Source of the DNA: Kineococcus radiotolerans SRS30216 = ATCC BAA-149
Lineage (GTDB): Bacteria; Actinomycetota; Actinomycetes; Actinomycetales; Kineococcaceae
Direction of reading: 5' to 3'
DNA: 32,000 nucleotides
Assembly: GCF_000017305.1 (NCBI RefSeq)
Contig: NC_009664.2
Location: 1,680,001 to 1,712,000 of the forward strand
In this document: piece after piece, positions 4,865 to 32,000 of the stretch
Layout of the letters: every line of letters starts with the position of its first letter
Numbering within the stretch: position 1 is the first letter of the stretch
Notes under the pieces: model-generated
Database searches by the model: none
What the model saw: only the letters and a program-made list of their open reading frames with translations
What the model was told of the DNA's origin: nothing
Position numbers and translations under genes: made by a program

Positions 4865-5084
4865 GCGGCGCTCCTCGCGGGTGGTCGGGTCCGAAGGAGC
4901 AAGTCCCCCACGAACCATTCCGATGCTAGACCCGACCTCCGACAGCTTCACGCCCGTCGGCGTCGGCCGAGGGGCGGTGAGGCGGTCTGAGCCCGGTTGT
5001 CCTGTCCAACCTGCGCCCCGGACCCGGTGTTCCGCCACCTCGTTCGCTGGTGGCGTAGCCGCTCAGGTCCGCCCGTGCGCCGCC

Positions 5085-5112
5085 GCGCGGGGCTCGCGCG
5101 GGGCTCGCGCGG
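5085..5112. repeat. 11-bp tandem direct repeat, 2.5 copies (gcgcggggctc)
   Basis: gcgcggggctc at 5085-5095 and again at 5096-5106, then a partial gcgcgg. It lies in the clpC1 / oxidoreductase divergent intergenic region, 29 nt upstream of GTG 5141. Confidence 0.9.
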
Positions 5113-5140
5113 CACCCCCGCCGGCCCTAGCGTCCCCCCG

Positions 5141-9959: not shown

Positions 9960-10020
9960 GGGAACGCTCCTGTCCGTGTGCTTCGTCGGAGGTGCCATCG
10001 GGATGTCGTCGCCCGGGGGC

Positions 10021-11379: not shown

Positions 11380-11493
11380 CGTGATCTCCTTCGATCGGTG
11401 ACGGGCCCGGCGGCGGCGGCGCTGCGTTCCCGGTGACTGGCCCCATTGCGGCACAGCCGGGCGTGCTCGTCAAGCGCTTTCCAGCAAGTTCCC

Positions 11494-11506
11494 ACAAAGG
11501 TTTTCA
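11494..11506. promoter_or_regulatory. LacI-type operator-like element, copy 1 (ACAAAGGTTTTCA)
   Basis: Imperfect palindrome in the 270-bp divergent intergenic region, 115 nt upstream of the binding-protein ATG. It shares the core CAAAGGTTT(T/G)CA with the sites at 11592 and 22072. Confidence 0.5.
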
Positions 11507-11591
11507 GTCTGTGACCACCGCGTCCCGTTCTCCGCGCGCCGACGCGCGCCCGGTGCTTGACAGGCCCCGCCGGGAGGGTGCTGACTGATCC

Positions 11592-11604
11592 GCAAAGGTT
11601 TGCA
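11592..11604. promoter_or_regulatory. LacI-type operator-like element, copy 2 (GCAAAGGTTTGCA)
   Basis: Arms GCAAA/TTTGC are perfectly symmetric around a GG centre. It lies 46 nt upstream of ATG 11650 and ~30 nt downstream of a TTGACA hexamer (11557-11562). Confidence 0.55.
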
Positions 11605-11649
11605 GAGGCGCTCCGGCGGCCCGCACCCCCGACTCGCGGAGGAGTCCCC

Positions 11650-13008
11650 ATGACCGTCCCCACGGCGTCCGACCCGGCCCCCGCCCGCACCCGCTACGCC
11701 GTCGTCGGCCTCGGCGGGCGGGCCCAGATGTACGTGCGCGCCCTGGCGCGCACCCACGCCGACCGCAGCGAGCTCGTGGCGTTCTGCGACGTCAACCAGA
11801 CGCGCATGGACGCCCACAACAAGGCGCTGCGCGACGACCACGACCACGACCCCGTCCCCACCTACGCGGCGGCGGACTTCACCACGATGCTCGCCGAGCA
11901 GCGGGTCGACGCGGTCGTCGTCACGACGGTGGACAGCACCCACGACCACTACATCGTCGCCGCGCTGCAGGCGGGGTGCGACGTCGTCACCGAGAAGCCC
12001 ATGACGATCGACGCGGAGCGCTGCCGGCGCATCCTCGACGCCCAGGAGGCCTCCGGGCGCAAGGTCACCGTCACCTTCAACTACCGCTACAACCCCGCCC
12101 ACGCCAAGGTCCGCGAGGTCATCGCCTCCGGGGCGATCGGCGAGGTCGGCTCCGTCCACTTCGAGTGGCTGCTCGACACCCGCCACGGGGCCGACTACTT
12201 CCGGCGCTGGCACCGCGACAAGGCCAACTCCGGCGGGCTCATGGTCCACAAGGCCACCCACCACTTCGACCTCGTCAACTGGTGGATCGCCTCCTCCCCC
12301 GAGACGGTCTTCGGCCTGGGCCGGCTGTTCTTCTACGGCGACGAGAACGGCGCCCGGCGCGGCCTGGCCCGCGACTACGACCGCGCGCACGGCGCCCCCG
12401 CCGCGGCCGAGGACCCCTTCGCGCTGCAGCTGGACTCCTCCCCCAACCTCACGGCGCTCTACCTCGACGCCGAGCACGAGGACGGCTACCACCGCGACCA
12501 GAACGTCTTCGCCCCCGGCGTGACCATCGAGGACGACATGTGCGTGGCCGTCCGCTACCGCAGCGGCGCGACGATGAGCTACCACCTCACCGCCTACTCC
12601 CCCTGGGAGGGCTACCGCGTGGTCTTCAACGGCAGCGGGGGCCGCCTGGAGCTGGACGTCGTCGAGAACGCGTTCGTCGACCCGGTCACCGCCGGCCGCG
12701 CCCCCGGCGAGGCGCTGCACGGCGTCGACGGACCCGACGCCGACTCCGGCGCGGGGACCCGTCTGGTCCTGCGCCGGCTGTGGGAGCGGCCCGTGGAGCT
12801 GGAGCTGCCCGACACCACCGGCGCCGGGCACGGCGGCGGTGACGACCGCATGCTCGCCGACATCTTCGGCGCCCCCGCGGGGCCGGACCCGCTGGGCCGG
12901 GCCTCCACCCAGCTCGACGGGGCGCGGTCCCTGCTCACCGGCCTGGCCGCCAACCGGTCCTTCGAGACCGGGCTGCCCGTGCGCGCGGACGACGTCCTGG
13001 CCCTCTGA
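11650..13008 (+). CDS. Gfo/Idh/MocA family oxidoreductase (long, ~450-aa form)
   Basis: RYAVVGLGGRAQMY Rossmann start plus CDVVTEKPM (EKP motif). ATG 11650 is preceded by GGAGGAG. The track start at TTG 11557 would read through the operator and promoter region. Confidence 0.85.
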   Translation: MTVPTASDPAPARTRYAVVGLGGRAQMYVRALARTHADRSELVAFCDVNQTRMDAHNKALRDDHDHDPVPTYAAADFTTMLAEQRVDAVVVTTVDSTHDHYIVAALQAGCDVVTEKPMTIDAERCRRILDAQEASGRKVTVTFNYRYNPAHAKVREVIASGAIGEVGSVHFEWLLDTRHGADYFRRWHRDKANSGGLMVHKATHHFDLVNWWIASSPETVFGLGRLFFYGDENGARRGLARDYDRAHGAPAAAEDPFALQLDSSPNLTALYLDAEHEDGYHRDQNVFAPGVTIEDDMCVAVRYRSGATMSYHLTAYSPWEGYRVVFNGSGGRLELDVVENAFVDPVTAGRAPGEALHGVDGPDADSGAGTRLVLRRLWERPVELELPDTTGAGHGGGDDRMLADIFGAPAGPDPLGRASTQLDGARSLLTGLAANRSFETGLPVRADDVLAL

Positions 13009-13053
13009 GCGGCCACCGCCCCCACCCCACCCGCGAACCCCCGGAGAACCCCC

Positions 13054-14475
13054 GTGCGCCCCCTCACCCTCGACGACGACCGCCTCCTGCCCACCGAACC
13101 GGGGGTGCGCGCGCTGGCCCGGGAGGTCTACGGCCACGTCCGGGACCTGCCGATCATCAGCATGCACGGCCACGTCGAGGCGCAGGTCCTGGCCGAGGAC
13201 GAGCCGTTCGACGACCCGGCCCGGATGCTCGTCGTCCCCGACCACTACGTGACCCGCATGCTCGTCTCCCAGGGCACCCGCCCCGAGGACCTCGGCGTGC
13301 CCCGCACCGACGGCGGGCCCGTCGAGCAGGACGGGCGGGAGATCTGGCGCCGCTTCTGCGCGGGCTGGCACCTGTTCCGCGGCACCCCCAGCCGGTACTG
13401 GCTGGAGCACGAGCTGCACGAGGTGTTCGGGGTGCGCGTGCACCCCTCCCCCGAGACCGCGGACGAGATCTACGACCAGCTCGCCGAGCGCATCGCGAGC
13501 CCCGAGTTCCGGCCCCGGGCGCTCTTCGACGCCTTCGGGGTGGAGCTGCTGGCCACGACCGACGCTCCCACCAGCCGGCTGGAGCACCACGCCGCCATCG
13601 CCGCCTCGGGCTGGTCGGGCACCGTCGTGCCCACCTTCCGCCCCGACGCCCTCGTCCACCTGGGCCGCCCGGGCTGGAAGCGGGACGTGGAGGAGCTCGC
13701 GGAGGTCTCCGGCGAGGACACCGGCGACTACGCCGGGTTCCTCGCCGCGCTGCGGCAGCGGCGCGCGCACTTCGCGGCGATGGGCGCGCGGGCCACCGAC
13801 CACGGCCACCTCACCGCGGACTCCGCCCCGCTGGAGCGCGCCGACGCCGAGCGCGTCTACGCCGCCGCCCGCGCGGGGGCGGTGGGCCCGGCCGACGCGT
13901 CGGCGTTCGCGGCCCACATGCTCTTCGAGATGGCCCGCATGAGCCGCGACGACGGCCTGGTCATGCAGATCCACCCGGGGGTGCTGCGCGACCACGACCC
14001 GGCGGTCCACGAGCGGTTCGGCTCCGACAAGGGTTTCGACATCCCGATCGCCGTCGACTTCGTCCACGGCCTGCGCCCGCTGCTGTCGGAGTTCGGGTCC
14101 GACCCGGCGTTCCGCTGCGTCCTGTTCACCATCGACGAGACGACGTTCTCGCGCGAGCTCGCCCCGCTCGCCGGGGCCTACCCCTCGGTGCGCCTGGGGG
14201 CGCCGTGGTGGTTCCTGGACTCCCCCCTGGCCATGCGCCGCTTCCGCGAGGCCGTCACCGAGACGGCCGGGTTCTACAACACCTCCGGCTTCGTCGACGA
14301 CACCCGCGCCTTCGCCTCGATCCCGGCCCGCCACGACGTGTCGCGCCGCGTCGACAGCGGGTTCCTCGCCACCCTCGTCGCCTCCGGGCAGCTCTCGCTG
14401 GAGGAGGCCGTGGAGACCGCCGTGGACCTCACCACCACCGTCCCCCGCACCGCGTACGCCCCCCGCGGCGCCTGA
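13054..14475 (+). CDS. uxaC: Glucuronate/galacturonate (uronate) isomerase
   Basis: Collinear by eye with E. coli UxaC: DLPIISMHGHV, PDHYVTRML, ATTDAPTSRLEHHAAIA, FRPDAL, GAPWWFLDSP, FVDDTRAF. GTG 13054 is preceded by GGAGAA. Confidence 0.93.
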   Translation: MRPLTLDDDRLLPTEPGVRALAREVYGHVRDLPIISMHGHVEAQVLAEDEPFDDPARMLVVPDHYVTRMLVSQGTRPEDLGVPRTDGGPVEQDGREIWRRFCAGWHLFRGTPSRYWLEHELHEVFGVRVHPSPETADEIYDQLAERIASPEFRPRALFDAFGVELLATTDAPTSRLEHHAAIAASGWSGTVVPTFRPDALVHLGRPGWKRDVEELAEVSGEDTGDYAGFLAALRQRRAHFAAMGARATDHGHLTADSAPLERADAERVYAAARAGAVGPADASAFAAHMLFEMARMSRDDGLVMQIHPGVLRDHDPAVHERFGSDKGFDIPIAVDFVHGLRPLLSEFGSDPAFRCVLFTIDETTFSRELAPLAGAYPSVRLGAPWWFLDSPLAMRRFREAVTETAGFYNTSGFVDDTRAFASIPARHDVSRRVDSGFLATLVASGQLSLEEAVETAVDLTTTVPRTAYAPRGA

Positions 14476-14507
14476 TCCCCCGGCCCCACCAGCACAGGAG
14501 CGAGCAC

Positions 14508-15683
14508 GTGATCAGAGTCGCCGTCGTCGGCACCGGGGGCATCTCCGCCTCCCACCTGCAGGCCTACCTCGACTTCCCGCAGCGCTGCACCGTCGTCGCC
14601 CTCGTCGACGTCTTCCCCGAGCGGGCGCAGGCCCGCCGTCGGGAGTTCGGCCTGGAGGGGGCGGGGGTGCACACCTCGCACCGGGAGCTGCTCGAGCGCG
14701 GGGACGTCGACCTCGTCAGCGTCTGCAGCCCGCCCTCCACCCACGAGGAGGTGAGCGTCGACCTCCTGCGCGCGGGCGTCAACGTGCTCTGCGAGAAGCC
14801 CATGGCCCCCTCCCTCGCCGCGTGCGACGCGATCCTGCGCGCCGAGCGCGAGGGCGGCGCGGTGTTCTCCTCGGTGGCGCAGAACCGGTTCCGTGACGAC
14901 GTGGTGCGGTTGAAGGCGGCCCTGGACTCCGGCCTGGCCGGTCCCGTCTCGCACGTCCAGGTGGACTCCGCCTGGTGGCGGGGCCTGGGCTACTACGACC
15001 TGTGGTGGCGCGGCACCTGGGCGGAGGAGGGCGGCGGCTGCACCCTCAACCACGCCGTGCACCACGTCGACCTGCTGCTGTGGCTGCTGGGCGCCCCGCG
15101 GTCGGTGACGGCCGCGCTCACCAACGCCGCGCACGAGAACGCCGAGGTCGAGGACCTCTCGGTCGCGGTCCTGGCCTACGAGCGGGCGCTGGCGACGATC
15201 ACCAGTTCCGTCGTCTCCCACGGCGAGCGGCAGCGCATCGTCGTGCAGGGCCGCCGCGCGAGCGTGGCCCTGGACGGCGAGGTCGTCGCCGAGCTCGCCC
15301 AGCCCAACGGGTTCCCCGCCCCGGAGGGCGACACCGAGCTCGCCGGGCGGTTGCGGGCGCTGGCCGCGGCGCACCGCCCGCTGGCCCACACCGGTCACCG
15401 GGGACAGGTCGACGACGTCCTGACCGCCCTGGAGACCGGCTGCCGCCCCGCCGTCGACGGCCACGACGGCCGCCGCACCATCGAGCTGATCACCGCGATC
15501 TACCGGGCGGGCATCGAGCGCCGCACCGTCGACCTCCCGCTGAGCGGCGACGACCCGTACGCGCGGCCCGGGACGCTGGCCGAGCGGGCCCCGCGGTTCT
15601 TCGCCAAGTCCGCCTCCGTCACCGACCTCGCGGGGTCGATCAGCGTGCCGGGCTCGGGCGCGGGGATCGGGGCCGGCCGGTGA
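14508..15683 (+). CDS. Gfo/Idh/MocA family oxidoreductase
   Basis: IRVAVVGTGGISASH plus VNVLCEKPM. 391 aa. GTG 14508 is preceded by ACAGGAG. Everything upstream in track ORF 14205..15683 overlaps uxaC out of frame. Confidence 0.88.
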   Translation: MIRVAVVGTGGISASHLQAYLDFPQRCTVVALVDVFPERAQARRREFGLEGAGVHTSHRELLERGDVDLVSVCSPPSTHEEVSVDLLRAGVNVLCEKPMAPSLAACDAILRAEREGGAVFSSVAQNRFRDDVVRLKAALDSGLAGPVSHVQVDSAWWRGLGYYDLWWRGTWAEEGGGCTLNHAVHHVDLLLWLLGAPRSVTAALTNAAHENAEVEDLSVAVLAYERALATITSSVVSHGERQRIVVQGRRASVALDGEVVAELAQPNGFPAPEGDTELAGRLRALAAAHRPLAHTGHRGQVDDVLTALETGCRPAVDGHDGRRTIELITAIYRAGIERRTVDLPLSGDDPYARPGTLAERAPRFFAKSASVTDLAGSISVPGSGAGIGAGR

Positions 15684-16768
15684 GCGCCGACGGCGGCACC
15701 TACGCCCCCGCCCCCCGGCCCGCGCCCGTCGTCGAGGCCGGGGAGTTCGTCGTCGCGGCGATCGGCCTGGAGCACGGTCACGCGTACGGCATGTGCGAAG
15801 GCCTCATTGGGGCCGGCGCCACCCTGAAGTGGGTGCACGACCCCGACCCGGTGAAGGTGGAGCGGTTCCGCGAGCGCTTCCCGCAGGTGCGGGTCGCGCG
15901 CTCGGAGGAGGAGGTCCTGGCCGACCCGGAGGTGCGGCTGGTGGCGGGGGCGGCGATCCCGGCGCAGCGGTGCGCGCTCGGCCTGCGGGTGATGGCGGCG
16001 GGCAAGGACTACTTCAGCGACAAGGCGCCCCTGACCACGCTCGAGCAGCTCGCCGCCGCGCGGGAGGCGGTGGCGCGCACCGGGTGCAAGTACGCCGTCT
16101 ACTACTCCGAGCGGGTCCACGTGGAGACGGCGGTGTTCGCCGGGCAGCTCATCGAGCAGGGGGCCATCGGGAAGGTGCTGCAGGTCGTGGGACTCGGCCC
16201 GCACCGGCTCAGCGCCCCCACCCGCCCGGGGTGGTTCTTCGACCGCGAGCAGCACGGCGGCATCCTCATCGACATCGGCAGCCACAACGTCGACCAGATC
16301 CTGCACTACACCGGCGCCGCCGGCGCCCGGGTCGTCAACAGCCAGATCGCGAACTACGCGCACCCGGAGCACCCGGGTTTCGACGACTTCGGCGACGCGA
16401 ACCTGGTGACCGACACCGGGGCCACCGGGTACTTCCGCTGCGACTGGTTCACCCCCGACGGCCTGCAGACCTGGGGGGACGGCCGCTCGTTCGTCCTGGG
16501 CACCGAGGGGTTCATCGAGCAGCGCAAGTACGCGAACATCGGCACCCAGGACGGCCCCGGGCACCTGTTCCTGGTCAACGGGCAGGGCGAGCAGCACTTC
16601 CACCTCGACGGGGAGGTGGGGTACCCGTTCTTCGGCCAGCTCGTGCTGGACTGCCTGCAGCGCACCGAGACGGCGATGACCCAGGAGCACGCGTTCACGG
16701 CGGTGGAGCTCGCGATCCGCGCGCAGCTGGAGGCGGCGGACCTCTCGCCGGTCCCCCGGCCGCGGTGA
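15680..16768 (+). CDS. Gfo/Idh/MocA-like oxidoreductase (atypical N-terminal motif)
   Basis: 362 aa with family-like C-terminal domain blocks (GGILIDIGSHNVDQI). The N-terminus reads VVAAIGLEHGHAYG and the EKP position reads YFSDKAP. GTG 15680 overlaps the upstream stop (GTGA). Confidence 0.78.
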   Translation: MSADGGTYAPAPRPAPVVEAGEFVVAAIGLEHGHAYGMCEGLIGAGATLKWVHDPDPVKVERFRERFPQVRVARSEEEVLADPEVRLVAGAAIPAQRCALGLRVMAAGKDYFSDKAPLTTLEQLAAAREAVARTGCKYAVYYSERVHVETAVFAGQLIEQGAIGKVLQVVGLGPHRLSAPTRPGWFFDREQHGGILIDIGSHNVDQILHYTGAAGARVVNSQIANYAHPEHPGFDDFGDANLVTDTGATGYFRCDWFTPDGLQTWGDGRSFVLGTEGFIEQRKYANIGTQDGPGHLFLVNGQGEQHFHLDGEVGYPFFGQLVLDCLQRTETAMTQEHAFTAVELAIRAQLEAADLSPVPRPR

Positions 16769-16771
16769 GGC

Positions 16772-16803
16772 CGCGGCGCCGGTGGCCCCCCACCGGCGCC
16801 GCG
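16772..16803. terminator. Bidirectional stem-loop between convergent operon ends
   Basis: 14-bp perfect stem CGCGGCGCCGGTGG / CCACCGGCGCCGCG with loop CCCC. It fills the 35-nt gap between the stop at 16766-16768 (+) and the stop at 16804-16806 (-). Confidence 0.6.
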
Positions 16804-17898
16804 TCAGCCCGTCAGGTGCTGCTCCAGGAACGCCCACGCCCGGTCCTGCATCGCGACGTCGAAGCGGTGGCCGCCGGGGTGCTGCTCCCCGCGGTAGGTG
16901 CCGGTGGCCGCGTGCCGGGCCAGGAGGCGCTCGTGGGCGGCGCGCATCCCCCCGGGCGGGAACAGCGGGTCGTCCACCGCGTACTGCACGAGCAGCGGGC
17001 GCCGCGCGGTGAGGTCGGGCAGGTCGGCGAAGCGGGCCAGCCCGGGCGAGTGCAGCAGCCACGAGTGGGTGTCCAGGTACCGGCCCACCAGCGCGTCCGT
17101 CGTGGAGAGCATGCAGGCGACGACGTGGGCGCGGACGCGTTCGTCCAGGGCCGCCAGCAGCAGCGCGCGCCCACCGCCGCCGGAGAACCCGAAGGCCCCC
17201 AGCCGGTGCGGGTCGGTCCCGGGCCGGGCGGCGAGGACGTCGAGGGCCACCAGGTCCTCGTGGAGGACCGCCCCCGTGAACGTCGTGCCCAGCACGCCGG
17301 CCGCCTTGGCGAGGGTCTCCTCGTGCAGCTGGGCGTGCGCGTCGTAGCGCTGCGCCGGGCCGTCCTCGACGCCGCGCGCCGCCCGGTCCGCCGCCAGGGC
17401 CGCGAGCCAGGGCGCCCACTTCGGGGAGGGCCGCGTCAGCGGGAACCGGCGGCTGCCCCAGGAGAACGCGTCGTGGACCAGGACGGCGAAACCGCGCCGG
17501 GCCAGGGCGTTGGCCGCGGCGCGCCCGCCGTAGCCGGGGAAGCGGGGCGCGGCGTCGGGCGGGGGCGTGCCGTCGTCGACGAGCTTGGCGGCGCCGGTCC
17601 ACTTCACCCCGCCGTGGCAGTGCAGGCCGAGCACCCCCGGCAGGACCCCGTCCGCGCCCGCGGGACGCAGCAGGAAGGCCCGGGTCCGCGGGCCGAAGCC
17701 GACGTCCCAGGACAGCGCGCTGACCTCGACGTCGCCGACCCGGCGCGATCCCTCCTCGTGCACCCGCGGCGGCGGGGGCCGGCGGGGCAGCCCCAGCACC
17801 GCGGCCAGGTCGGGCGGGCCGCTGCGCGCGGGCAGTTCCCGGCCCAGGAAGGCGGGCCAGTCCTCGAAACCCTCCAGCGCGTCGGCGGGGTCCTCCAC
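16804..17898 (-). CDS. Alpha/beta hydrolase, esterase-like (acetylxylan esterase / dienelactone hydrolase type)
   Basis: Nucleophile elbow GAFGFSGGG, with candidate acid and base residues later in the protein (VDDPLFP, HPGGHRF). Start placed at GTG 17898, 2 nt after the upstream stop; the start is uncertain. The rest of track ORF 16804..18741 is out-of-frame shadow. Confidence 0.72.
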   Translation of the reverse strand: MEDPADALEGFEDWPAFLGRELPARSGPPDLAAVLGLPRRPPPPRVHEEGSRRVGDVEVSALSWDVGFGPRTRAFLLRPAGADGVLPGVLGLHCHGGVKWTGAAKLVDDGTPPPDAAPRFPGYGGRAAANALARRGFAVLVHDAFSWGSRRFPLTRPSPKWAPWLAALAADRAARGVEDGPAQRYDAHAQLHEETLAKAAGVLGTTFTGAVLHEDLVALDVLAARPGTDPHRLGAFGFSGGGGRALLLAALDERVRAHVVACMLSTTDALVGRYLDTHSWLLHSPGLARFADLPDLTARRPLLVQYAVDDPLFPPGGMRAAHERLLARHAATGTYRGEQHPGGHRFDVAMQDRAWAFLEQHLTG

Positions 17899-17900
17899 CC

Positions 17901-19409
17901 TCAGCTCGCGACGCTCTCGCGGACCGCCCCCGCCACCCCGTCCCGGGTCAGGACCTCCAGCGCCTCCTCGACCAGCGCGCGGAAGCGGGCGTCGGCGGGC
18001 AGGTCCGTGCCGAAGACCTCCGGCAGCCCCAGCAGCGCGTCGACGACGGCCGCGGGCGACCCGGCGCCCGCGGTGACCTCGCCCAGGCGCGCGGCCAGCG
18101 GGTCGTCGACCGGCAGCGCCACCCCGGCTTCCGAGCGCCCGGTGGAGACGTACCGCATCCAGGCGGCGACCCCCAGGCAGGCCGCCCGGGGTTCGCGCCC
18201 GGCGGCCAGCGCGTCGGAGATCGTCCCCAGCAGGCGCTGCGGGAGCTTCTGGCTGCCGTCCATCGCGATCTGCAGGGTGCGGTGGTGCAGCGCGGGGTTG
18301 GCGAAGCGGTCCAGCAGGTCCTGCCGGTAGCGCGCCACGTCGAACCCGTCCGGCACGGCCAGGGTCGGCACGACGTCGTGCGCCATGAGGCGGTCCACGA
18401 GCGCGGCGATCCCGTCGTCGGCGACGGCGTCGGCGACGTGCTCGTGCCCGGCCAGCAGGCCCAGGTAGGCCAGCGTGGAGTGGCTGCCGTTGAGCAGCCG
18501 CAGCTTCATCGCCTCGTAGGGCGCGACGTCGGCGGTGAGGACGGCCCCGGCGCGCTCCCACGCCGGGCGCCCGGCGGCGAAGTCGTCCTCGACGACCCAC
18601 TGGCGGAACGGCTCGGTGACGACGACGCCCTCGTCGCGCAGCCCCAGCAGGCGCTGCACCTGGTCGCGGTCGGCGGGGGTCGTGGCGGGCACGATCCGGT
18701 CGACCATGGAGGAGGGGAAGCGCACCGACGCCGCGATCCACTCCCGCAGGCCGTCGCCGTCGGGCAGGGCGGCGCAGAAGTCCCCGACGAGGCCGCGCAG
18801 CACCGCCCCGTTGGCGGGCAGGTTGTCGCAGGAGAGCAGCGTGACCGGGCCCGCGTCGGCGGCCCGGCGGGCGGCCAGGCCCGCGACGAGCTGCCCCACG
18901 ACGGTGCGCGGCGGGCGGGCGGTGGACCAGCCGTCGAGGTCGGCGGCGACGTCGGGGTCCGCGCGCCGCAGCCGCCCGGTGGCCGGGTCGTGGCGGTAGC
19001 CCTTCTCGGTGACCGTCAGCGTGACGAGGCGGGTGGTGGGCGCGGCGATCAGGGCGCGCAGGCGCCCGGGTTCCTCCCCCGCGAACAGCAGCTCGCGCAC
19101 GGCGCCGACGACGCGGGCCGAGCTGCCGCCGGCGTCGTGGGCGAGCACGGTGTACAGCCCGTCCTGCGGGCCGAGCTGCTCCACGACGGAGCGGCTGCGC
19201 TGGGTGACCCCGCAGATGCCCCAGTCGCCGCCGGCGGCGGCGACGGCGTCCTCGGTGTAGACGGCCTGGTGGGCGCGGTGGAAGGCGCCGATGCCGAGGT
19301 GCACGACGCCGACCCCGAGGGCGCGGGGGTCCACGCGCGGGCGGTGCCCGGCCTCGACGGCGTCGAGGGTGCCCAGCGAGAGGCGCGGCGCCGGTGCGGG
19401 GGTGCTCAT
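17901..19409 (-). CDS. Mannitol dehydrogenase-family oxidoreductase, likely altronate/fructuronate (tagaturonate/fructuronate) reductase
   Basis: VVHLGIGAFHRAHQAVYT dinucleotide-binding signature of the long-chain mannitol dehydrogenase family (UxaB/UxuB/MtlD). 502 aa. ATG 19409 overlaps the uxaA stop (TGATG). UxaB and UxuB cannot be told apart by eye. Confidence 0.87.
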   Translation of the reverse strand: MSTPAPAPRLSLGTLDAVEAGHRPRVDPRALGVGVVHLGIGAFHRAHQAVYTEDAVAAAGGDWGICGVTQRSRSVVEQLGPQDGLYTVLAHDAGGSSARVVGAVRELLFAGEEPGRLRALIAAPTTRLVTLTVTEKGYRHDPATGRLRRADPDVAADLDGWSTARPPRTVVGQLVAGLAARRAADAGPVTLLSCDNLPANGAVLRGLVGDFCAALPDGDGLREWIAASVRFPSSMVDRIVPATTPADRDQVQRLLGLRDEGVVVTEPFRQWVVEDDFAAGRPAWERAGAVLTADVAPYEAMKLRLLNGSHSTLAYLGLLAGHEHVADAVADDGIAALVDRLMAHDVVPTLAVPDGFDVARYRQDLLDRFANPALHHRTLQIAMDGSQKLPQRLLGTISDALAAGREPRAACLGVAAWMRYVSTGRSEAGVALPVDDPLAARLGEVTAGAGSPAAVVDALLGLPEVFGTDLPADARFRALVEEALEVLTRDGVAGAVRESVAS

Positions 19410-21010
19410 CACATCACCGCCCCGAGCTGCCACGGCTGGAACTCCTCGTCGCCGACGCCGAGCTCCTCGCTCTTGCTGCGCCGCCCGGAGGCGACCTCGA
19501 GGATCAGCTCGAACAGCTCCCGCCCGGCCTCCTCCACGGTCTGCTCCCCGGTGAGGACGCGCCCGCAGTCGACGTCCATGTCCTCGTCCATCCGGGCGTA
19601 CACCTCGGAGTTGGTGGCGAGCTTGATGCTCGGGGCGGGTTTGCAGCCGAACACCGAGCCGCGCCCGGTGGTGAAGCAGACGACGTTGGCCCCGCCCGCG
19701 ACGAGCCCGGTGACGGAGACGGGGTCGTAGCCGGGGGTGTCCATGAAGGTGAACCCCTTGGCCGTGATGGGCTCGGCGTACTCGTAGACGGCTTCCAGCG
19801 CAGCGGAACCGCCCTTGGCCACGGCGCCGAGGGACTTCTCCAGGATCGTCGTCAGCCCGCCCGCCTTGTTCCCGGGCGAGGGGTTGTTGTCCATGCTGCC
19901 GCCGTGGGCCGCGGTGTACTCCTCCCACCAGCGGATGCGGCGGACCAGCTTCGCCGCCACCTCGGGGTCGCGGGCGCGGCGGGTCAGCAGGTGCTCGGCG
20001 CCGTAGACCTCCGGCGTCTCGGCGAGCACCGAGGTGCCGCCCTGCGCCACGAGCAGGTCGGAGGCGACGCCGAGGGCGGGGTTGGCGGTGACCCCGGACC
20101 AGGCGTCGCTGCCGCCGCAGTTGAGGCCGAGGACGAGCTCGGAGGCCGGGACCGGGACGCGGCGGACGGCGTCGACGACGGGCAGCAGCTCCCGGACGCG
20201 TTCCACCCCGGCGGCGACGGTGCGGGTGGTGCCGCCGATCTCCTGGATCGTCATGGCGACGACGGGGACCTCCGGGGGCAGGTCGAAGCCGGAGGTGAGC
20301 GCAGCGACCTGGTTCACCTCGCAGCCGAGGCCGATGACGAGCAGGGCCGCGAAGTTGGGGTGGCGCGCGTAGCCGGAGATGGTGCGCCGCAGCAGCTGCG
20401 CCCCCTCGCCGAGGGCGTCCATGCCGCAGCCGGTGCCGTGGGTGAGCGCGACGACCCCGTCGACGTTCGGGTAGGCGTCCAGCGCCCCGGGCCAGCGGAA
20501 GGTGTCGGCGATGCGCCGGGCCGCGGTGGCGGAGCAGTTCACCGAGGTGAGGATCCCGATGTAGTTGCGCGTCGCGACCCGGCCGTCGGCGCGCACGATG
20601 CCGTCGAAGGTGCGGCGCTCGGCCGGCGGCACGAGCGGGGTGGGGCGGGCGTCGACGCCGACGGCGTAGCCGCCCGGCCCGGCGTCGGCGCTGCCGGCCC
20701 CGGCCTGCGAGGCGGTGAAGGCGAGGTTGTGCACGTGGACGTGCTCGCCCGCGGCGATCGGGGCGGAAGCGAGACCGATGAGCTGGCCGTACTTGCGCAC
20801 CGCCTCCCCGGCCGCGACGTCGCGCAGCGCGACCTTGTGCCCGGCGGGGACGTCGGTGCGCACGGTCAGCGCGCCCGCCTCCCCCAGCGCGGCGAGGTCG
20901 ACGGCGGTGCCGGCCGCGAGCGCCTCGCGGGCGACGGCGACGGTGTCGCCCGGGGCCAGCCGCAGCAGCGGGGCCGCGGTGCGGGCGGGGAGGGGGGTGG
21001 ACGTCGTCAC
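19409..21010 (-). CDS. uxaA: UxaA-family sugar-acid dehydratase, likely altronate dehydratase
   Basis: N-terminal SAF-like segment (PAGHKVALRDVAAGEAVRKYG) and conserved family blocks (NCGGSDAWSGVTANPALG, NPSPGNKAGGLTTILEKSLGA, CFTTGRGS). GTG 21010 has GGAGG 7 nt upstream and overlaps the LacI stop (GTGA). GarD (galactarate dehydratase) belongs to the same family and is not excluded. Confidence 0.88.
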   Translation of the reverse strand: MTTSTPLPARTAAPLLRLAPGDTVAVAREALAAGTAVDLAALGEAGALTVRTDVPAGHKVALRDVAAGEAVRKYGQLIGLASAPIAAGEHVHVHNLAFTASQAGAGSADAGPGGYAVGVDARPTPLVPPAERRTFDGIVRADGRVATRNYIGILTSVNCSATAARRIADTFRWPGALDAYPNVDGVVALTHGTGCGMDALGEGAQLLRRTISGYARHPNFAALLVIGLGCEVNQVAALTSGFDLPPEVPVVAMTIQEIGGTTRTVAAGVERVRELLPVVDAVRRVPVPASELVLGLNCGGSDAWSGVTANPALGVASDLLVAQGGTSVLAETPEVYGAEHLLTRRARDPEVAAKLVRRIRWWEEYTAAHGGSMDNNPSPGNKAGGLTTILEKSLGAVAKGGSAALEAVYEYAEPITAKGFTFMDTPGYDPVSVTGLVAGGANVVCFTTGRGSVFGCKPAPSIKLATNSEVYARMDEDMDVDCGRVLTGEQTVEEAGRELFELILEVASGRRSKSEELGVGDEEFQPWQLGAVM

Positions 21011-26585: not shown

Positions 26586-27452
26586 TCAGTCGAGCGGGCG
26601 CCCGACGACGAGGGGGACGTTGTCGATGAGCCGGGTCGAGCCCACCCGGGCCGCGACGGCCAGCAGCGCCTCCCCGCGGTGGTGCTCGGGGACGTCGGCG
26701 AGGTCGTGGGGGTCGACCAGGGCCAGGTAGTCGACGCGGGCCGCGGGCTCGGCGAGGAGCACGTCGCGCGCGGCGCGGCGCACGGCGCTGGGCCCCTCGC
26801 CCGCGGCCGCCGCCCCCGCCCGCAGCGCCCGCTGCAGCACCAGGGCGACCTCGCGGTCGAAGGGGGTGAGGTAGCGGTTGCGGCTGGACATCGCCAGGCC
26901 GTCGTCCTCGCGCACGGTGGGGACGGCGACGACGTCGACCCCGAGGTCGAGGTCGCGGACCATCCGGCGCACCAGCAGCAGCTGCTGGGCGTCCTTCTGC
27001 CCGAAGAGCGCGAGGTCGGCGCGCGTCAGGTGGAGCAGCTTCGCCACGACCGTGAGGACCCCGTCGAAGTGGCCGGGGCGGCTGGCCCCCTCCAGGACGG
27101 TCCCCAGCGGTCCGGCCGCGACCCGCACGCCGGGGTCGCCGTCGGGGTAGACGACGTCGGGGGCGGGGGCGAACACGACGTCGGCACCGGCCGCGGCGGC
27201 CAGCCGCAGGTCGTCGTCGAGGGTGCGCGGGTAGCGGGCCAGGTCCTCCCCCGCCCCGAACTGCAACGGGTTGAGGAAGATCGTCACGAGCACCGACGGG
27301 GCCCGGCGGCGGGCCTCCTCGATGAGCCGGGCGTGCCCGGCGTGCAGCGCCCCCATCGTCATGACCACGGCGACCGGGCCCTCGAGGGCGGCACGGGCCG
27401 CGGCGAGCTCGGTGCGGGTGCGGGCGACCGTCAGGTCGGTGGGGAGGCTCAC
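26586..27452 (-). CDS. panC: Pantoate--beta-alanine ligase
   Basis: [12 protein letters not shown] (HIGH-like motif), [21 protein letters not shown]. 288 aa. GTG 27452 has GGAGAA upstream and overlaps the upstream stop (GTGA). The N-terminal 530 codons of track ORF 26586..29054 are out-of-frame shadow. Confidence 0.93.
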
Positions 27453-28363
27453 GGTTCTCCAGGTGCGGGCGGCGCCGGGCGGGCGGCGGTGCTGGTGGCG
27501 GTCTCGATGGCGGCGCGCACGGCTTCGGCCGGCGCGTCGGGCAGCCTGCCCGACGCCTGTGCGCGGTCGGCGGCGGCCCCCGCGAGCTGGGCGTAGGTCG
27601 CGGCGGTGCCGGGGTCGTGGGCGGCGAGGACGCCGAGGTGGGTCGCGACCGTCCCGGCGTCCCCGCGGGCGACGGGCCCGGTGAGGGCGTCGTCGCCGCG
27701 GTCCAGGACGTTGTCGAGGGCGGCCTGCAGCAGCGGCCGCAGCACCCGCCCGGCGTCCTCGCCGACGGCGGCGCGCGCCGCGTCGAGGGCCTGGGCGACC
27801 AGGGTGACGAGGTGGTTCGACCCGTGGGCCAGCGAGGCGTGGTAGAGCGCGCGGTCGCCCTCGGCGACCCCGACGGGGGTGCAGCCCCACTCCCGCACCA
27901 GGGCGTCGGCGACGGGGGCGAGGACGGCGGAGCTGGTGACCGCGACGGCCGCCCCGAGGAGGCGCTGCAGGTCCAGGGAGGTCCCGGTGAACGTCATCGC
28001 CGGGTGCAGGGCCAGCGGGAGGGCCCCCCGGGCGGCGGCGGGGTCCAGGACGCCGGTGCCGTGCCGGCCGCAGGTGTGCACCACGAGCTGGCCGGGGCGG
28101 ACGTGCGGGGCGAGGTCGGCGACGAGCGGTCCGAGGACGTCGTCGGGCACGGCGAGCAGGACGAGGTCGGCGGCGAACGCCTCGGCGGGTTCGATCCACG
28201 GCACGTCCGGCAGCAGCGCCTCGACGCGCTCGGCGGCCCCGCGCGTGCGGGCCGCGACCCCGGTGATGCGGTGCCCGGCGGCGCGCATCGCCGCCCCGAG
28301 CACCGGCCCCACCCGGCCGGCGCCGACCACCGCGACGTCCAAGCGTCCCGCCTGCGAACCCAC
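27449..28363 (-). CDS. Rossmann-fold NAD(P)-binding protein with DUF2520-like C-terminal domain
   Basis: [16 protein letters not shown] dinucleotide-binding start, 304 aa, Ala/Leu-rich. Translationally coupled to panC. It resembles the conserved protein encoded upstream of panC in other actinobacteria. Confidence 0.72.
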
Positions 28364-28419
28364 CGCGGCACCCTAGCCCGCGTGCCCGCGGCTCACCCGG
28401 GCGCCGTCGGGAGGAGCCT

Positions 28420-30630
28420 TCAGCCGCCGAGGTGACCCGGCGTCCCGGCGGGCGCTGCCGGGGGCCTCGGGGCCCCGCCGGGCGGGTTGGGGACGGGCGG
28501 GTTGGGGGCGGGCGGGTTGGACCCCGGCGGGTTGGACCCCGGCGGGTTGGGGGCGGGCGGGTTGGACCCCGGCGGGTTGGACCCCGGCGGGTTGGACCCC
28601 GGCGGGTTGGGCACAGGGGGTGCCGGAGGGTTCGGCGGTTCCGGCGCACCGGTTGGCTCGGGCGCAGCCGTCGACGGTCCCGGCTTGGGCGCACCGGTCG
28701 AGGGCTCCGGCTTCGGTGCACCGGTCGACGGTTCCGGCTTTGGACCCGCCGGCTCGGACGGTTCCGGCTTCGGACCCGCCGGCTCGGACGGCTTGGGCTT
28801 CGGACCCGCCGGCTCGGACGGCTTCGGCTTCGGCGTACCGGTCGACGGCTTGGGCTTCGGCGTACCGGTCGACGGCTTGGGCTTCGACGCACCCGTCGAC
28901 GGCTTGGGCTTCGACGCACCCGTCGACGGCTTGGGCTTCGACGCACCCGTCGACGGCTTGGGCTTCGACGCACCCGTCGACGGCTTGGGCTTCGACGCAC
29001 CCGTCGACGGCTTGGGCTTCGACGCACCCGTCGACGGCTTGGGCTTGGGCGCACCCGTCGACGGCTTCACCGCCGACGCACCCCCGGCCGTGGGGGCCGT
29101 CGTCCGGCTGGCGGGTGCAGCGGGACGCGTCGCCGCTCCGGGGGTCGCCGCGGGGCGGGGGCCCGTCGTCCCGCGGGCCGGCGGCGTCGTGGACGGGACG
29201 AGGGAGGACGGGGACGCCTCGGGACCCGCGGTCAGCGGGAGGGGACCCGGGAGGACCGGGATCGACGAGGCCGAGGGGCTCGGGGCGGCCGCGGCCGGGA
29301 AGACCGGGAGGGTCGAGGAGGCCGCGGACGACGAGGCGGAGGATCCCGGGGAGGACGACCCCTCGGACGACGACCCGGGGGACGACGGGGTCCGGGGGGC
29401 GGGGGTCGCGGAGCCCGCCCGGGGGGTCCCGGCGGCGACCTCGGCCGGGGACGCCGTGGAGGCCGGGGCGGCCTCCACGGCCGCGGCGGGGGTGGAGGCG
29501 ACGGCGACCGCGGCGGACCCGGCGCCGACCCCGACGGCCGCGGACAGCACCGCGGCCGCCACCTGCCCGCCGGCGGTCTGCGCGACCGACGCGGCGGTGG
29601 ACAGCGCCTGGGCGGGGGCGACCCCCACCCCCGGCAGCGCGGCCAGCAGCGTCGCGGGGCCGGCGATGCGGCGCAGGCGGCCGATCCCGACGCTGAGGAA
29701 CGCGCGCACGACCTCGGGGTCGAACTGCTCCCCCGCGCAGCGGGTGATCTCGGCCCGGGCCTGCTCGGCCGGCATCGGCTTCTTGTAGGCGCGGGCGGAG
29801 GTGATGACGTCGTAGGTGTCGGCCACGGCGATGACGCGGGCGGCCAGGGAGATGTCCTGCCCGGCCAGACCGCGCGGGTACCCGCCGCCGTCCCAGCGCT
29901 CGTGGTGCTGCTCCACGCCGTCCAGCCAGTCCCCCAGCCAGCCGCGCAGCGGTTGCACGAGCTCCCCGCCGTGGTGGGGGTGCTGCTGCAGGGTGGCCCA
30001 CTCCTCCTCGGTGGGGCGGCCGTCCTTGTTGATGATCTCGACGGGGACGTGGACCTTGCCCACGTCGTGCAGCAGGGCGACCCAGCTGAGCCGGTCGACG
30101 TCGTCGTCGGACAGACCGAGCTCGCGCCCGATGAGGGCGGCGTAGGCCTGGACGCGTTCCCCGTGGGCGCGGGTGCGCGCGTCGTGGCCGGCGAGGGTGC
30201 CGACGAGGGCCAGCAGCCGCTGCGCGGCGCCCCCCTCGGCGCCCACCACCTCGCCCCCGGGCGCGGCGTCGCCCTCCAGCGCCGCGGGCGTCCAGGTGCG
30301 GCGGGCCACCTCGAAGCGGCTGGGGACCCGGTCGGGCAGCACCAGGCTGAGGCGCAGCAGCGCCGACAGCGGCAGCAGCCCGCGCAGCCAGCGGGAGAGG
30401 ACGACGAGGACGCCGGTGGAGGTCCCCACCACCAGCAGCAGCCACACCGGCCAGGGCAGCCCGGTCCGCGTCGCGGGCAGCCACTGCGCGGCCCCGGCGC
30501 CGACGACGAGGGCGACGACCAGGGGGCCCAGCGAGGACGTCGCCCGGACGAGGAGGGCGAGCGCGGGCCGGGAGCGCCACTGCGTCCCGGGGGCGGCGTC
30601 GCCGTAGTTCTGAGTCGGTCCCTTCACCAC
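28420..30630 (-). CDS. Membrane-anchored HD-GYP domain protein with a long Pro-rich tandem-repeat C-terminal tail
   Basis: Two N-terminal hydrophobic segments. HD-GYP core: [40 protein letters not shown]. The C-terminal ~330 aa are Ser/Ala/Pro-rich, then STGxxKPKP, [10 protein letters not shown] and NPPGS repeats. GTG start at 30630 (or 30627). Confidence 0.85.
28481..28615 (-). repeat. 15-bp in-frame tandem repeat, 9 copies (ggcgggttggNNNNN), encoding NPP(G/A/V)(S/P) pentapeptides
   Basis: Units start every 15 nt from 28481. Five units are the identical ggcgggttggacccc, two are ggcgggttgggggcg, and the two end units differ. The array lies inside the 3' end of the HD-GYP gene. Confidence 0.95.
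28670..29083 (-). repeat. 27/30-bp in-frame tandem repeat array, 15 units, encoding STGxxKPKP / [10 protein letters not shown]
   Basis: Unit starts at 28670, 28697, 28724, 28754, 28784, 28814, 28841, 28868, 28895, 28922, 28949, 28976, 29003, 29030 and 29057. The six units from 28868 to 29029 are all gtcgacggcttgggcttcgacgcaccc with no substitutions. Confidence 0.95.
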
Positions 30631-30727
30631 CCGTCGGGATTCGGCACCCGTTCACCGGGGTTGAGGGTCCTGGCCCGCCGTTCACCCGCTCGCCCGGCCG
30701 GCTCACCCGGTCGGGGGTCCCGGAACG

Positions 30728-30762
30728 CCGACGGCCCCGGACCAGGGGTCCGGGGCCGTCGG
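30728..30762 (-). terminator. Stem-loop downstream of the SAF-domain dehydrogenase gene
   Basis: CCGACGGCCCCGGACC / GGTCCGGGGCCGTCGG: 16-bp perfect stem with a 3-nt loop. It starts 16 nt after the stop at 30778-30780. Confidence 0.6.
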
Positions 30763-30777
30763 GGTGCGGGTGCGGCG

Positions 30778-32000
30778 TCAGTGCGCCAGCAGGGCCGCCT
30801 GCTCGGCGCGCAGGGCGTCGATGAGCCGCCCCTGCGGCAGGACCACGTCGTCGTAGGTGAGGACCTGGTCCTTCTTCACGGCGTGCTTGAGGACCGCGCC
30901 CTCGGCGACGCCCATGGGCAGCAGGTTCTGCGCCTTGGTGATCGCGTAGGTCTCGGCCACGCCGTAGGAGTCGTAGCCGCCGAGGCGGTCGATCTCCTTG
31001 CCGGCGGCGAGGTCGGTCTTGGCCGTGGTGACGACCTCGACCTTCACCTCGTCGCCGGGCACGATCGCGGCGTCGGCGAACAGCACCGCGCGGGCCACGG
31101 TCAGCGGCACCTCGAAGTGGCACAGGTGGTACGGCGTGTAGAACGAGTACAGCGGCCCGGTGCCGAGCTTGTACAGGTTCAGGTAGTGCTGCTGCTTGGG
31201 GTCGTCGTGGGTGCCGAGGACGTAGACGCCCGGGCCCGGCTTGGACCCCACGACGTAGTCGACGACGCCGCCGAGCTCCTTCAGCTGGTCCACGTCGTAG
31301 TGCGTGGTCAGCTCGTCGACGTGCCCGCGGTGGTCGGCGCCGCGCATGCCGCGCTTCTCCACGCTGAACCCCGCCGCGTTGGCGACCAGCGCCTGCTCGA
31401 AGGACACCTTGGTGCCGTCGGCGAAGCTCGTCACCATGTAGGGGTCCTGGCCCCACTGCTTGGCGAACCCCTCCTGGGTGGTGGGGTTGCGGTACTCGTC
31501 CTGCAGGCCCTTGATGTTCCCCGACACCAGCGGCGTGACGCCGATGGAGCGCACGAAGCGGATGAGGTTCATCTGCACGCCGGGCTGGTCGCCGTCGCAG
31601 CCGGTGTAGATGACGCCGGCCTTCTCGGCGCGGGTGCGCAGCGCGAGGCCGGCGGTGCCGTCGACCTCGGCGTTGAGCAGCACGACGTGCTTGCCGGCGT
31701 CAATGGCGCGGACCACGACGTGGGCGCCGTACTCGGTGTTGCCGGTCGCCTCGACGACGGCCTCGACCTGGCCCGCGTCGACGACGGCCTCGTAGGAGCC
31801 GGACACGACGGGCCGGCCCTGCGAGATGGCGCGGTCGACGGCGGCCGCGTCGTCGGCCTCGACCACGCCGGTGACCCCGGCCTGCTCGTAGGCGTCACGG
31901 GCCTTGGACACCGTCCGGTTGGCGATGGCGACGAGTTCCATGCCCGGGACGGAGTTCACGACCTGGTTGACGAAGCCGCGGCCCATGAACCCGGCCCCGA
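30778..32000 (-). CDS. NAD(P)-binding dehydrogenase with C-terminal SAF domain (homoserine-dehydrogenase-like, COG4091-type), 5'-truncated by the window edge
   Basis: The frame stays open to the window end: the bases beyond 31986 still read ..GPGFMGRGF, part of the glycine-rich Rossmann loop. The C-terminal segment VVTTAKTDLAAGKEIDRLGGYDSYG..VLTYDDVVLP looks like a SAF domain. Confidence 0.7.
   Translation of the reverse strand, partial: GAGFMGRGFVNQVVNSVPGMELVAIANRTVSKARDAYEQAGVTGVVEADDAAAVDRAISQGRPVVSGSYEAVVDAGQVEAVVEATGNTEYGAHVVVRAIDAGKHVVLLNAEVDGTAGLALRTRAEKAGVIYTGCDGDQPGVQMNLIRFVRSIGVTPLVSGNIKGLQDEYRNPTTQEGFAKQWGQDPYMVTSFADGTKVSFEQALVANAAGFSVEKRGMRGADHRGHVDELTTHYDVDQLKELGGVVDYVVGSKPGPGVYVLGTHDDPKQQHYLNLYKLGTGPLYSFYTPYHLCHFEVPLTVARAVLFADAAIVPGDEVKVEVVTTAKTDLAAGKEIDRLGGYDSYGVAETYAITKAQNLLPMGVAEGAVLKHAVKKDQVLTYDDVVLPQGRLIDALRAEQAALLAH

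Follow-up and report, generated by a model that had tools for sequence, protein, structure and literature searches.

A membrane HD-GYP protein of Kineococcus radiotolerans with a proline-rich repeat tail, a linker-only member of a widespread family with variable C-terminal modules

The gene and its reading frame

We analyzed a stretch of 32,000 nucleotides of the Kineococcus radiotolerans SRS30216 genome (contig NC_009664.2, positions 1,680,001 to 1,712,000; hereafter the window). It includes a gene for a predicted membrane protein in which an HD-GYP phosphodiesterase domain is followed by a long, repeat-rich C-terminal tail. The gene (28420..30630, minus strand) is a single open reading frame (ORF) of 736 codons plus stop with a GTG start, and an initial annotation made from the sequence was right to describe it as uninterrupted. 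The product is an exact match to ABS02062.1, for which the database name is only "metal dependent phosphohydrolase"; the RefSeq version (WP_049821119.1) has 735 amino acids (aa). The features identified are as follows (TM, transmembrane segment; GC3, GC content at third codon positions; L006, a metagenome contig discussed below):

28420..30630, minus strand: whole gene, 736 codons plus stop (ORF call, GC3, exact protein match)
30604..30621, minus strand: motif GPTQNY (aa 4-9), predicted cytoplasmic (near-invariant in close family members)
30481..30564, minus strand: TM1 (aa ~23-50) (hydropathy; AlphaFold helix 22-50, pLDDT 75-95)
30382..30456, minus strand: TM2 (aa ~59-83) (hydropathy and AlphaFold model)
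30295..30381, minus strand: Arg-rich juxtamembrane segment (aa 84-112) (P87, D100, P103 and R105 invariant)
29671..30195, minus strand: HD-GYP domain (aa 146-320) (profile match, comparison with PDB sequences and structures, conservation, AlphaFold)
29605..29670, minus strand: weakly hydrophobic conserved segment (aa 321-342) (G324, P325 and P333 near-invariant)
29491..29565, minus strand: TM3 (aa ~356-380), rich in Ala, Val and Gly, with a predicted inside-to-outside orientation (hydropathy, family charge statistics)
29068..29490, minus strand: non-repetitive Ser/Ala/Pro/Thr-rich part of the tail (aa 381-521) (composition, AlphaFold model)
28819..29061, minus strand: nine STG(A/T)(S/P)KPKP nonamers (27-bp units, aa 524-604) (six consecutive units with 100% identical DNA)
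28729..28818, minus strand: three SEPAGPKP(K/E)P decamers (30-bp units, aa 605-634) (repeat analysis)
28675..28728, minus strand: two nonamer variants, STGAPKPEP and STGAPKPGP (aa 635-652) (repeat analysis)
28474..28632, minus strand: ten NPP(G/A/V)(S/P/G) pentamers (15/45-bp units, aa 667-719) (repeat analysis)
28393..29453, minus strand: segment without DNA similarity to L006 (tail from aa ~393 to 736, stop and 27 nt downstream) (blastn)

At the local GC content of 78-80%, an open frame by itself is weak evidence for coding, because another frame over the same DNA also stays open for 1027 codons. That alternative ORF (28373-31456, minus strand, 1027 aa) was rejected as a high-GC artefact, as was an antisense ORF (28487-29788, plus strand, 433 aa) that would need TTG and GCA codons repeatedly. 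The frame of the gene is fixed by the combination of GC3 (0.94 overall and 0.80-1.0 per 60-codon block, tail blocks included), codon usage in the repeats (the nonamer codons, TCG ACG GGT GCG TCG AAG CCC AAG CCG, fit a high-GC genome), homology that extends to aa ~392 and the presence of tails in all relatives.

The HD-GYP catalytic domain

The Pfam profile HD_5 (PF13487) matches aa 146-307 (E=3e-35, 121.9 bits versus a cut-off of 27.2), and PF01966 scores 61.6 bits. Scanning the protein against Pfam identified no HDOD, TonB or pentapeptide match and nothing outside the HD domains; HDOD, which had to be distinguished from HD_5, is thus set aside. The LLHDVGK motif is present. A phmmer search against PDB sequences recovered V-cGAP3, PmGH and PA4781 at E=1e-28 to 1e-32, and residues were mapped using the published list of PmGH metal ligands and catalytic residues (PMC4159591):

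PmGH D183 to D150
PmGH H189 to H156
PmGH H221/D222 to H188/D189
PmGH K225 to K192
PmGH H250 to H217
PmGH H276/H277 to H242/H243
PmGH G284-Y285-P286 to G250-Y251-P252
PmGH D305 to D271
PmGH D308 to D274
PmGH R314/K317 to R280/K283

Seven core metal ligands of PmGH (H189, H221, D222, H250, H276, H277 and D305) are matched, by H156, H188, D189, H217, H242, H243 and D271, respectively. In an alignment of 68 relatives the mapped residues are invariant or nearly so, and the seven metal ligands are all invariant. The eighth PmGH ligand, E185 of the E/D-T-G motif that marks the trinuclear subclass, is absent and R152 is aligned with it (DARTRAH versus DPETQNH). Proteins without an E185-type carboxylate are predicted to belong to the binuclear subclass (PMC4159591), although where that paper distinguishes E/D (trinuclear group) from Y/F (other group) at this position, the residue here is Arg. 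Because Arg152 replaces E185, we place the K. radiotolerans domain in the predicted binuclear-metal subclass, an assignment compatible with its belonging to the HD-GYP phosphodiesterases. The top structural match of the AlphaFold model (pLDDT >85 for aa ~30-320), the bimetallic PA4781 with a TM-score of 0.72, agrees with this assignment.

The substrate motif RxYK is present as R280-A-Y-K283, and this motif marks specificity for cyclic di-GMP (c-di-GMP) rather than cGAMP (bioRxiv 10.1101/2021.11.05.467447). From the residue set and the structural model, the protein is very probably an active c-di-GMP phosphodiesterase. The complete HD-GYP core proposed initially is thus borne out by the HD_5 match, seven of eight PmGH ligands, the D150/K192 pair, GYP and RxYK; metal and catalytic residues, whose loss would have undermined the proposal, are in place, and the view of the protein as a cyclic-dinucleotide signalling enzyme is well supported.

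The catalytic fold and motifs are common to the K. radiotolerans protein, PA4781 (4r8z, bimetallic), PmGH (4mcw, tri-iron) and V-cGAP3 (5z7c). Those three proteins are soluble and carry N-terminal REC or GAF-type sensor modules, whereas the domain described here is flanked by predicted membrane helices, with the variable module at the C-terminus, probably outside the cell.

Membrane topology

Topology was read from hydropathy, family charge statistics and the domain types of relatives. Three hydrophobic segments were identified (aa ~23-50, ~59-83 and ~356-380; Kyte-Doolittle 1.9-2.0), and the profile agrees with the two N-terminal hydrophobic segments and the Ala/Val/Gly-rich stretches after the domain that had been noted from the sequence. 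TM3 exceeds a Kyte-Doolittle value of 1.6 in 78% of 82 family members, versus 6% for the segment at aa 321-342, which is probably an interfacial helix and not a membrane crossing. The AlphaFold model has a conserved helix at aa 305-330 that continues the last HD-GYP helix. Across the same 82 members, the mean net charge is +2.45 before TM3 versus -2.41 in the 30 residues after it, and K+R is higher before TM3 than after in 67.

Because hydropathy, charge bias and the extracellular-type domains of relatives agree, this is most likely a three-pass protein with its N-terminus inside and its tail extracytoplasmic. The initial annotation had allowed for a tail projecting through the wall, depending on whether the chain crossed the membrane once or twice after the domain; the single predicted post-domain TM and the positive-inside charges of the relatives support an outside tail. 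Ahead of TM1, the motif GPTQNY(D/G)D is near-invariant from Kineococcus to Cellulomonas.

The C-terminal repeat tail

The tail comprises 356 residues (aa 381-736), of which 29% are Pro. It lacks Cys, Asp, Trp, Tyr, Met and Gln, and its only aromatic residue is one Phe. It is strongly basic (net about +20), and K+R versus D+E changes along its length from 13/1 (aa 471-560) to 16/6 (aa 561-650) and 1/2 (aa 651-736), so the gradient from basic to mixed to uncharged that had been described is real. The AlphaFold model lacks secondary structure from aa 367 to the end (pLDDT 37-60), and aa 381-736 are shown there as a disordered, polycationic, proline-rich chain. Both the modelled disorder and the repeat counts (nine nonamers, three decamers, two nonamer variants and ten pentamers, running to near the stop) match the non-globular tail of the initial annotation. 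The repeats are very recent in-frame minisatellite expansions, given that six consecutive 27-bp units are identical in DNA and that the unit lengths of 27, 30 and 15/45 bp are all multiples of three.

A search with the tail only (aa 402-736) against 5.8 billion proteins identified no homologue at E<=1e-3, and no Pfam or NCBIfam profile (TonB, pentapeptide or other) matches the tail. The NPPGS pentamers were considered as a degenerate pentapeptide-repeat domain and rejected: only the five-residue period is common to both, and PF00805, PF13576 and PF13599 do not match. There is no LPXTG sorting signal at the C-terminus; the sole similar string, LPLTAG, is internal.

The tail had been described as TonB-like, a reading that survives for composition and probable conformation only. 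As in the (EP)n(KP)n spacer of TonB, X-Pro alternates with Lys/Glu, a polyproline-II-like form is expected and the predicted position is in the envelope past a membrane anchor. The tail has 13 occurrences of KPKP and KPEP, embedded in units of 9 or 10 residues without homology to the TonB spacer, and homology to TonB was dropped after the tail-only search. TonB differs in having a C-terminal domain (TonB_C) and an outer membrane, both lacking for this protein, whose host is described as a Gram-positive actinobacterium (PMC2040194). TonB also has an ExbBD context; no genes for ExbB/ExbD or outer-membrane receptors turned up among the window ORFs scanned, although no test was aimed at them.

Another parallel is found in secreted proteins of actinobacteria, for example the cellulases of Cellulomonas fimi, which have PT-box and Ala/Pro-rich linkers. 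These are low-complexity tandem repeats of Pro, Thr, Ser and Ala between an anchor and an extracellular module, and relatives of the K. radiotolerans protein have them as (PT)n and (TPTA)n. The K. radiotolerans tail differs in that it ends without a module and is strongly basic. The polyproline-II rise is ~0.3 nm per residue, and 200 repeat residues could span tens of nm, comparable with the Gram-positive wall.

A widespread family with variable C-terminal modules

With aa 1-389 as query, 1053 proteins were identified at E<=1e-10. Kineococcus and Quadrisphaera supply the best matches (71-87% identity), those from Cellulomonas and Actinotalea come next (~50-60%), and identity to the K. radiotolerans protein over aa 1-390 ranges from 45 to 87% in the family. 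The first 135 aa alone, which contain the N-terminal two-TM module with the segment LLPLxxLLRLSLxFPDxxPSRF that is homologous across the family, matched 1029 clusters (50% identity) at E<=1e-3 and 109 at E<=1e-10. Members were found in assemblies of Kineosporiales, Micrococcales, Acidimicrobiales, Nitriliruptoria, Frankiales, Chloroflexota and Dormibacterota, and one genome can hold several paralogues.

Complete members have two N-terminal TMs, HD-GYP to about aa 320, a segment AGPxxLLxxLP, mostly TM3, and a tail of ~80-360 residues; protein lengths in the family reach 2237 aa. Every complete member keeps at least ~80 residues after TM3, and at 356 aa the tail of the K. radiotolerans protein is longer than that of any of the 120 closest homologues. 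Among these 120 best matches, 36 end in a pentapeptide-repeat domain, two in a cadherin-like/Big_9 domain and one in a lamin-tail domain (LTD), with no Pfam domain in the tail of the other 81; the terminal domains sit after a Pro/Thr/Ala-rich linker. A domain census of 58 diverse full-length representatives, all with HD_5, identified the following in the C-terminal region:

Big_9: 26 of 58 members
Cadherin_4: 24 of 58
Cadherin_5: 22 of 58
LTD: 10 of 58
Cadherin: 5 of 58
He_PIG: 5 of 58
FG-GAP, PKD, RibLong and CshA repeats: 1-2 of 58 each

These C-terminal domains are extracellular adhesin types. Comparison of the sequences shows a predicted family plan of two TMs, HD-GYP, an interfacial helix, TM3, a Pro/Thr-rich linker and a variable ectodomain (cadherin/Ig arrays, LTD, pentapeptide beta-helix or Cys-knob). 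The K. radiotolerans protein lacks a terminal globular domain or Cys-knob (no Pfam match, no Cys in the tail, and a model disordered to the end). Its repeat units are unique to it, and, compared with the rest of the family, it has the linker only.

Tails differ in each Kineococcus species examined. We identified (TPTA)n, (TGTPTP)n and (SPTAVPTT)n repeats, several with a Cys-x-Cys Gly/Asn knob; other species have the Lys/Pro repeats (PAKPA)n, (PKPVA)n or (KPTEKA)n, or a PT linker that leads into a pentapeptide domain. In several other Kineococcus species the tail is 200-270 aa long and consists of the linker only, in some cases Lys/Pro-rich. Thus a Pro/Lys repeat tail recurs within the genus, in sequences that are unrelated to one another.

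A small C-terminal Cys-x(9-18)-Cys knob was found in many Kineococcus homologues, at the ends of the ORFs called in L007 (~5700-5773), L008, L012, L014, L016 and L017, L011 and L087 (~1900-2010), and L004/L023. It is Gly/Asn- or Asn/Lys-rich, for example TGNCSGHGNGGGQGDGHAHC, CASNNKDKDKCGH and DDCHRHGGGEDRDDDRC, and may form a loop closed by a disulfide or a tip that binds metal. Quadrisphaera-type homologues (L019, L022) have an Ala/Lys/Asp-rich, helical-looking segment, AAKAAQKAADDAAARAAKDAADAAK, followed by (TGGL)n, and not Pro-rich repeats. Records titled Streptomyces sp. NP160 (L021) and Jannaschia sp. R86511 (L052) hold copies that are 73% and 69% identical, respectively, and the names look inconsistent with this affinity.

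Orthologues ending directly after HD-GYP would have spoken against the fusion; none were identified, and all full-length members carry C-terminal extensions. P0001 and P0002, which are short at 479 and 392 aa, respectively, were examined as candidates and rejected, as contig frameshifts shorten them and the tail continues in another frame. Of the 22 closest homologues listed at NCBI, six carry the label partial; the contig of at least two of these breaks off inside the repeat tail. The domain combination had been put forward as one not recognised as a described family. This stands to the extent that we found no paper describing the architecture, and falls to the extent that the combination is not rare (the 1029 clusters above). 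Likewise, the concern that the fusion might prove already common and characterised applies in its first half only: it is common in databases and uncharacterised.

Replacement of the tail relative to the closest syntenic relative

The closest syntenic relative is P0002, encoded on the metagenome contig L006 and 86% identical in the core. By blastn, window positions 32000-29454 match L006 at 89.8% identity and 28392-27511 at 90.3%. Between these blocks, the 1061 bp of the window and the corresponding 1177 bp of L006 are not detectably similar. When a few frameshifts are bridged, the L006 stretch is found to code for (PT)n/(PA)n runs and for a pentapeptide-repeat domain (Pfam E=2.8e-23). The divergence starts 12 residues past TM3, and because the core and flanking genes stay ~90% identical, the part after TM3 appears to turn over as a unit. 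L006 has many frameshifts between 6001 and 11700, where HD-GYP, DUF2520, panC and lysS are called as fragments and P0002 (392 aa) is falsely short.

A third close relative, at L087 (87% core identity), lies in a different context beside a PAS-GGDEF-EAL gene. Its tail is Thr/Pro-rich with a CASNNKNKNKCGH end, unlike the tails of the window protein and of L006.

Proposed role of the tail and alternatives

We favour, with a probability of roughly 0.6, a membrane c-di-GMP phosphodiesterase in which the cytoplasmic HD-GYP domain lies between TM2 and TM3 and the tail serves outside as a spacer or relay. The chain would emerge on the outer face of the membrane after TM3. The K. radiotolerans protein would be a linker-only variant, with an ectodomain cassette wholly unlike those of its nearest relatives, and the tail a flexible, largely polyproline-II-like spacer threading into or through the Gram-positive wall. 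A state sensed or tethered by the tail (wall polymers, charge or strain) may be relayed via TM3 and the AGPxxLLxxLP helix. This helix directly follows the last helix of the catalytic domain and would couple the outside part to the enzyme; the relay may modulate or localise c-di-GMP hydrolysis. The repeat arrays would make tail length evolvable.

Several observations weigh against this proposal. Neither the sequence of the tail nor its charge is conserved, with many relatives having neutral Thr/Pro tails, and a specific sensing role is therefore speculative. At 78-80% GC the open frame carries no evidence of selection. TM3 is Ala/Gly-rich and marginal on the biological hydrophobicity scale, and AlphaFold confidence is low over aa 320-366 (pLDDT 47-73). 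No GGDEF/EAL gene was identified in the window. The members of the family are known from sequence and predicted structure alone. Finally, the terminal domain of most relatives is missing here, which fits loss of ectodomain function equally well.

That last point leads to the main rival, a serious alternative that we nevertheless consider clearly less probable: the tail may be vestigial, the ectodomain having been lost or replaced and the linker drifting by neutral minisatellite change, so that the protein would be a plain membrane-anchored phosphodiesterase. The window protein has no counterpart of the pentapeptide domain found at this place in its closest syntenic relative, the tail lacks homologues and differs in every species, the perfect 27-bp repeats reflect recent growth that was probably driven by slippage or recombination, and open frames can persist by chance at this GC content. 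However, a substantial extension after TM3 is kept in every complete family member, the linker-only tails in other Kineococcus suggest that a long stalk is tolerated or selected, and none of the 120 closest homologues has a longer tail than the K. radiotolerans protein.

We consider it improbable that the tail is cytoplasmic, as it would be if both post-domain stretches crossed the membrane (four TMs) or neither did. It would then be an intracellular disordered scaffold, and the basic Pro-rich region might bind, for example, nucleic acid, anionic lipid or SH3-like partners. There are indeed two hydrophobic stretches after the domain, with RLRR directly ahead of the first, TM3 is marginal, and pentapeptide-repeat proteins can be cytoplasmic. 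Yet the first stretch holds three Pro and is hydrophobic enough to count as a TM in just 6% of relatives, and some relatives have Arg within it (P0111). Moreover, the residues after TM3 are net acidic family-wide, and relatives have arrays of cadherin-like, Big_9, LTD, PKD and FG-GAP domains of up to 1850 residues at the same position.

Still less likely is an HD-GYP domain that acts mainly as a c-di-GMP receptor and signals from inside to outside, as in DvhD/LapD, altering the conformation or exposure of an external module. DvhD of Desulfovibrio vulgaris (dCache-TM-PAS-HD-GYP) is among the top structural matches and is likewise a membrane HD-GYP protein coupled to an extracytoplasmic part and linked to adhesins, and the ectodomains of family relatives are of adhesin type. 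However, DvhD is catalytically dead, lacking the HD and HH motifs (SQ for HD, MN for HH), and its external domain is N-terminal to HD-GYP, whereas the catalytic residues here are invariant and the K. radiotolerans protein has no adhesin domain to display. An annotation or assembly artefact, in which a frameshift or mis-assembled repeats conceal a protein that ends soon after TM3, is barely credible: repeats are prone to assembly error and many relatives are partial or truncated (P0001 and P0002 end early by frameshifts in metagenome contigs), but this is a finished genome with a 735/736-aa product in both GenBank and RefSeq, in-frame GC3 stays at 0.80-0.95, the repeat units are multiples of 3 bp and tails are present in all complete relatives.

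Extending the favoured reading from this protein to its family gives a more speculative proposal, which we regard as doubtful as it stands. The family may represent unrecognised "inverted" one-component c-di-GMP proteins, in which a C-terminal surface module gates the cytoplasmic HD-GYP domain through a single helix. Adhesin-like arrays, a beta-helix or a wall-threading polycationic stalk would be the surface module, and contact, adhesion load or wall state would be converted to c-di-GMP degradation. The ectodomain would be an exchangeable, fast-evolving cassette, since it is wholly replaced between genomes ~90% identical in the flanks, with its length possibly tuned by in-frame minisatellites.

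Genomic context

The gene order on the minus strand is a DRL-type oxidoreductase, HD-GYP, DUF2520, panC, lysS, lsr2, a sugar-acid utilisation island and clpC. The DUF2520 gene starts 56 nt downstream of the HD-GYP gene, and no terminator-like site was identified between the two. A promoter and terminator scan of 28200-30900 identified no promoter-like site and one terminator-like match, inside the gene and at chance level. A spurious long ORF (26586-29054, minus strand, 822 aa) overlaps real genes; the true panC is at 26586-27449.

Conserved synteny with DUF2520-panC was considered and rejected: among 24 Kineococcus/Quadrisphaera-type loci, the order DRL/HD-GYP/DUF2520/panC/lysS was found only in L006. 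The initial annotation had pointed to a poorly characterised Ala/Pro-rich membrane protein at the equivalent position in Mycobacterium tuberculosis. The annotation of Rv3604c as an Ala/Arg/Pro-rich transmembrane protein fits that description (PMC10598944). Orthology does not follow, with the position being lineage-specific (one of the 24 loci). Compared by its published annotation, the match with Rv3604c is a coincidence and not evidence of relationship, because the DUF2520-panC position is not conserved even within Kineococcus.

GGDEF/EAL genes adjoin family members in four of the eight loci inspected. These GGDEF-EAL neighbours are at L003 31-1101, L004 829-4899, L005 3718-5118 and L087 2114-4255, and in L087 a gene for a methyl-accepting chemotaxis protein also follows. 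The next gene in L003 (8004-9362) overlaps the stop and encodes another cadherin/Big_9/He_PIG protein.

Elsewhere in the window, the sugar-acid island (5000-21000) includes a LacI regulator, an ABC transporter substrate-binding protein and permeases, uxaC, a mannitol-dehydrogenase-like gene and several GFO/IDH/MocA oxidoreductases. It sits between lsr2 and clpC, which are near neighbours in M. tuberculosis. The gene for a small RF-1-domain protein (763-1206, minus strand, 147 aa), ArfB/peptidyl-tRNA hydrolase-like, has an HhH-GPD glycosylase fragment on one side and a GNAT acetyltransferase gene on the other.

Relation to described HD-GYP proteins and significance

In the literature we identified no paper on HD-GYP with pentapeptide repeats, on cadherin-type HD-GYP fusions or on this architecture in Kineococcus c-di-GMP work. 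Family members are auto-annotated as HD domain-containing phosphohydrolase or HD-GYP domain-containing protein. According to a 2021 census, no HD-GYP protein linked to an extracytoplasmic sensor had then been characterised experimentally (bioRxiv 10.1101/2021.11.05.467447). HdgA and HdgB of Streptomyces venezuelae (6TM/MASE9-HD-GYP) are likewise actinobacterial membrane-bound HD-GYP proteins. They have a multi-TM N-terminal sensor and a C-terminal HD-GYP domain, and no C-terminal TM or ectodomain (PMC6205966; bioRxiv 10.1101/2021.11.05.467447). We conclude that the enzyme is ordinary, that the family architecture is undescribed and mechanistically suggestive, and that the K. radiotolerans member, having the linker only, is its least informative form.

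Tails of this kind break assemblies and gene calls, and many relatives have been deposited as partial or frameshifted sequences, which is a practical warning for their annotation. HD-GYP enzymes are described at the C-terminus behind N-terminal sensors, and the 2TM-HD-GYP-TM family reverses this order. The gene is an entry point to a large Actinomycetota/Chloroflexota family in which the enzyme appears to be clamped between membrane helices, with a variable C-terminal module that is probably exposed at the surface. Should the enzyme be controlled by the tail or ectodomain, the family would connect the surface or wall of Gram-positive bacteria directly to c-di-GMP, a kind of connection about which little is known in these organisms. 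If there is no such control, the locus is still a clear case of a surface linker that grows by minisatellite expansion and is replaced like a cassette.

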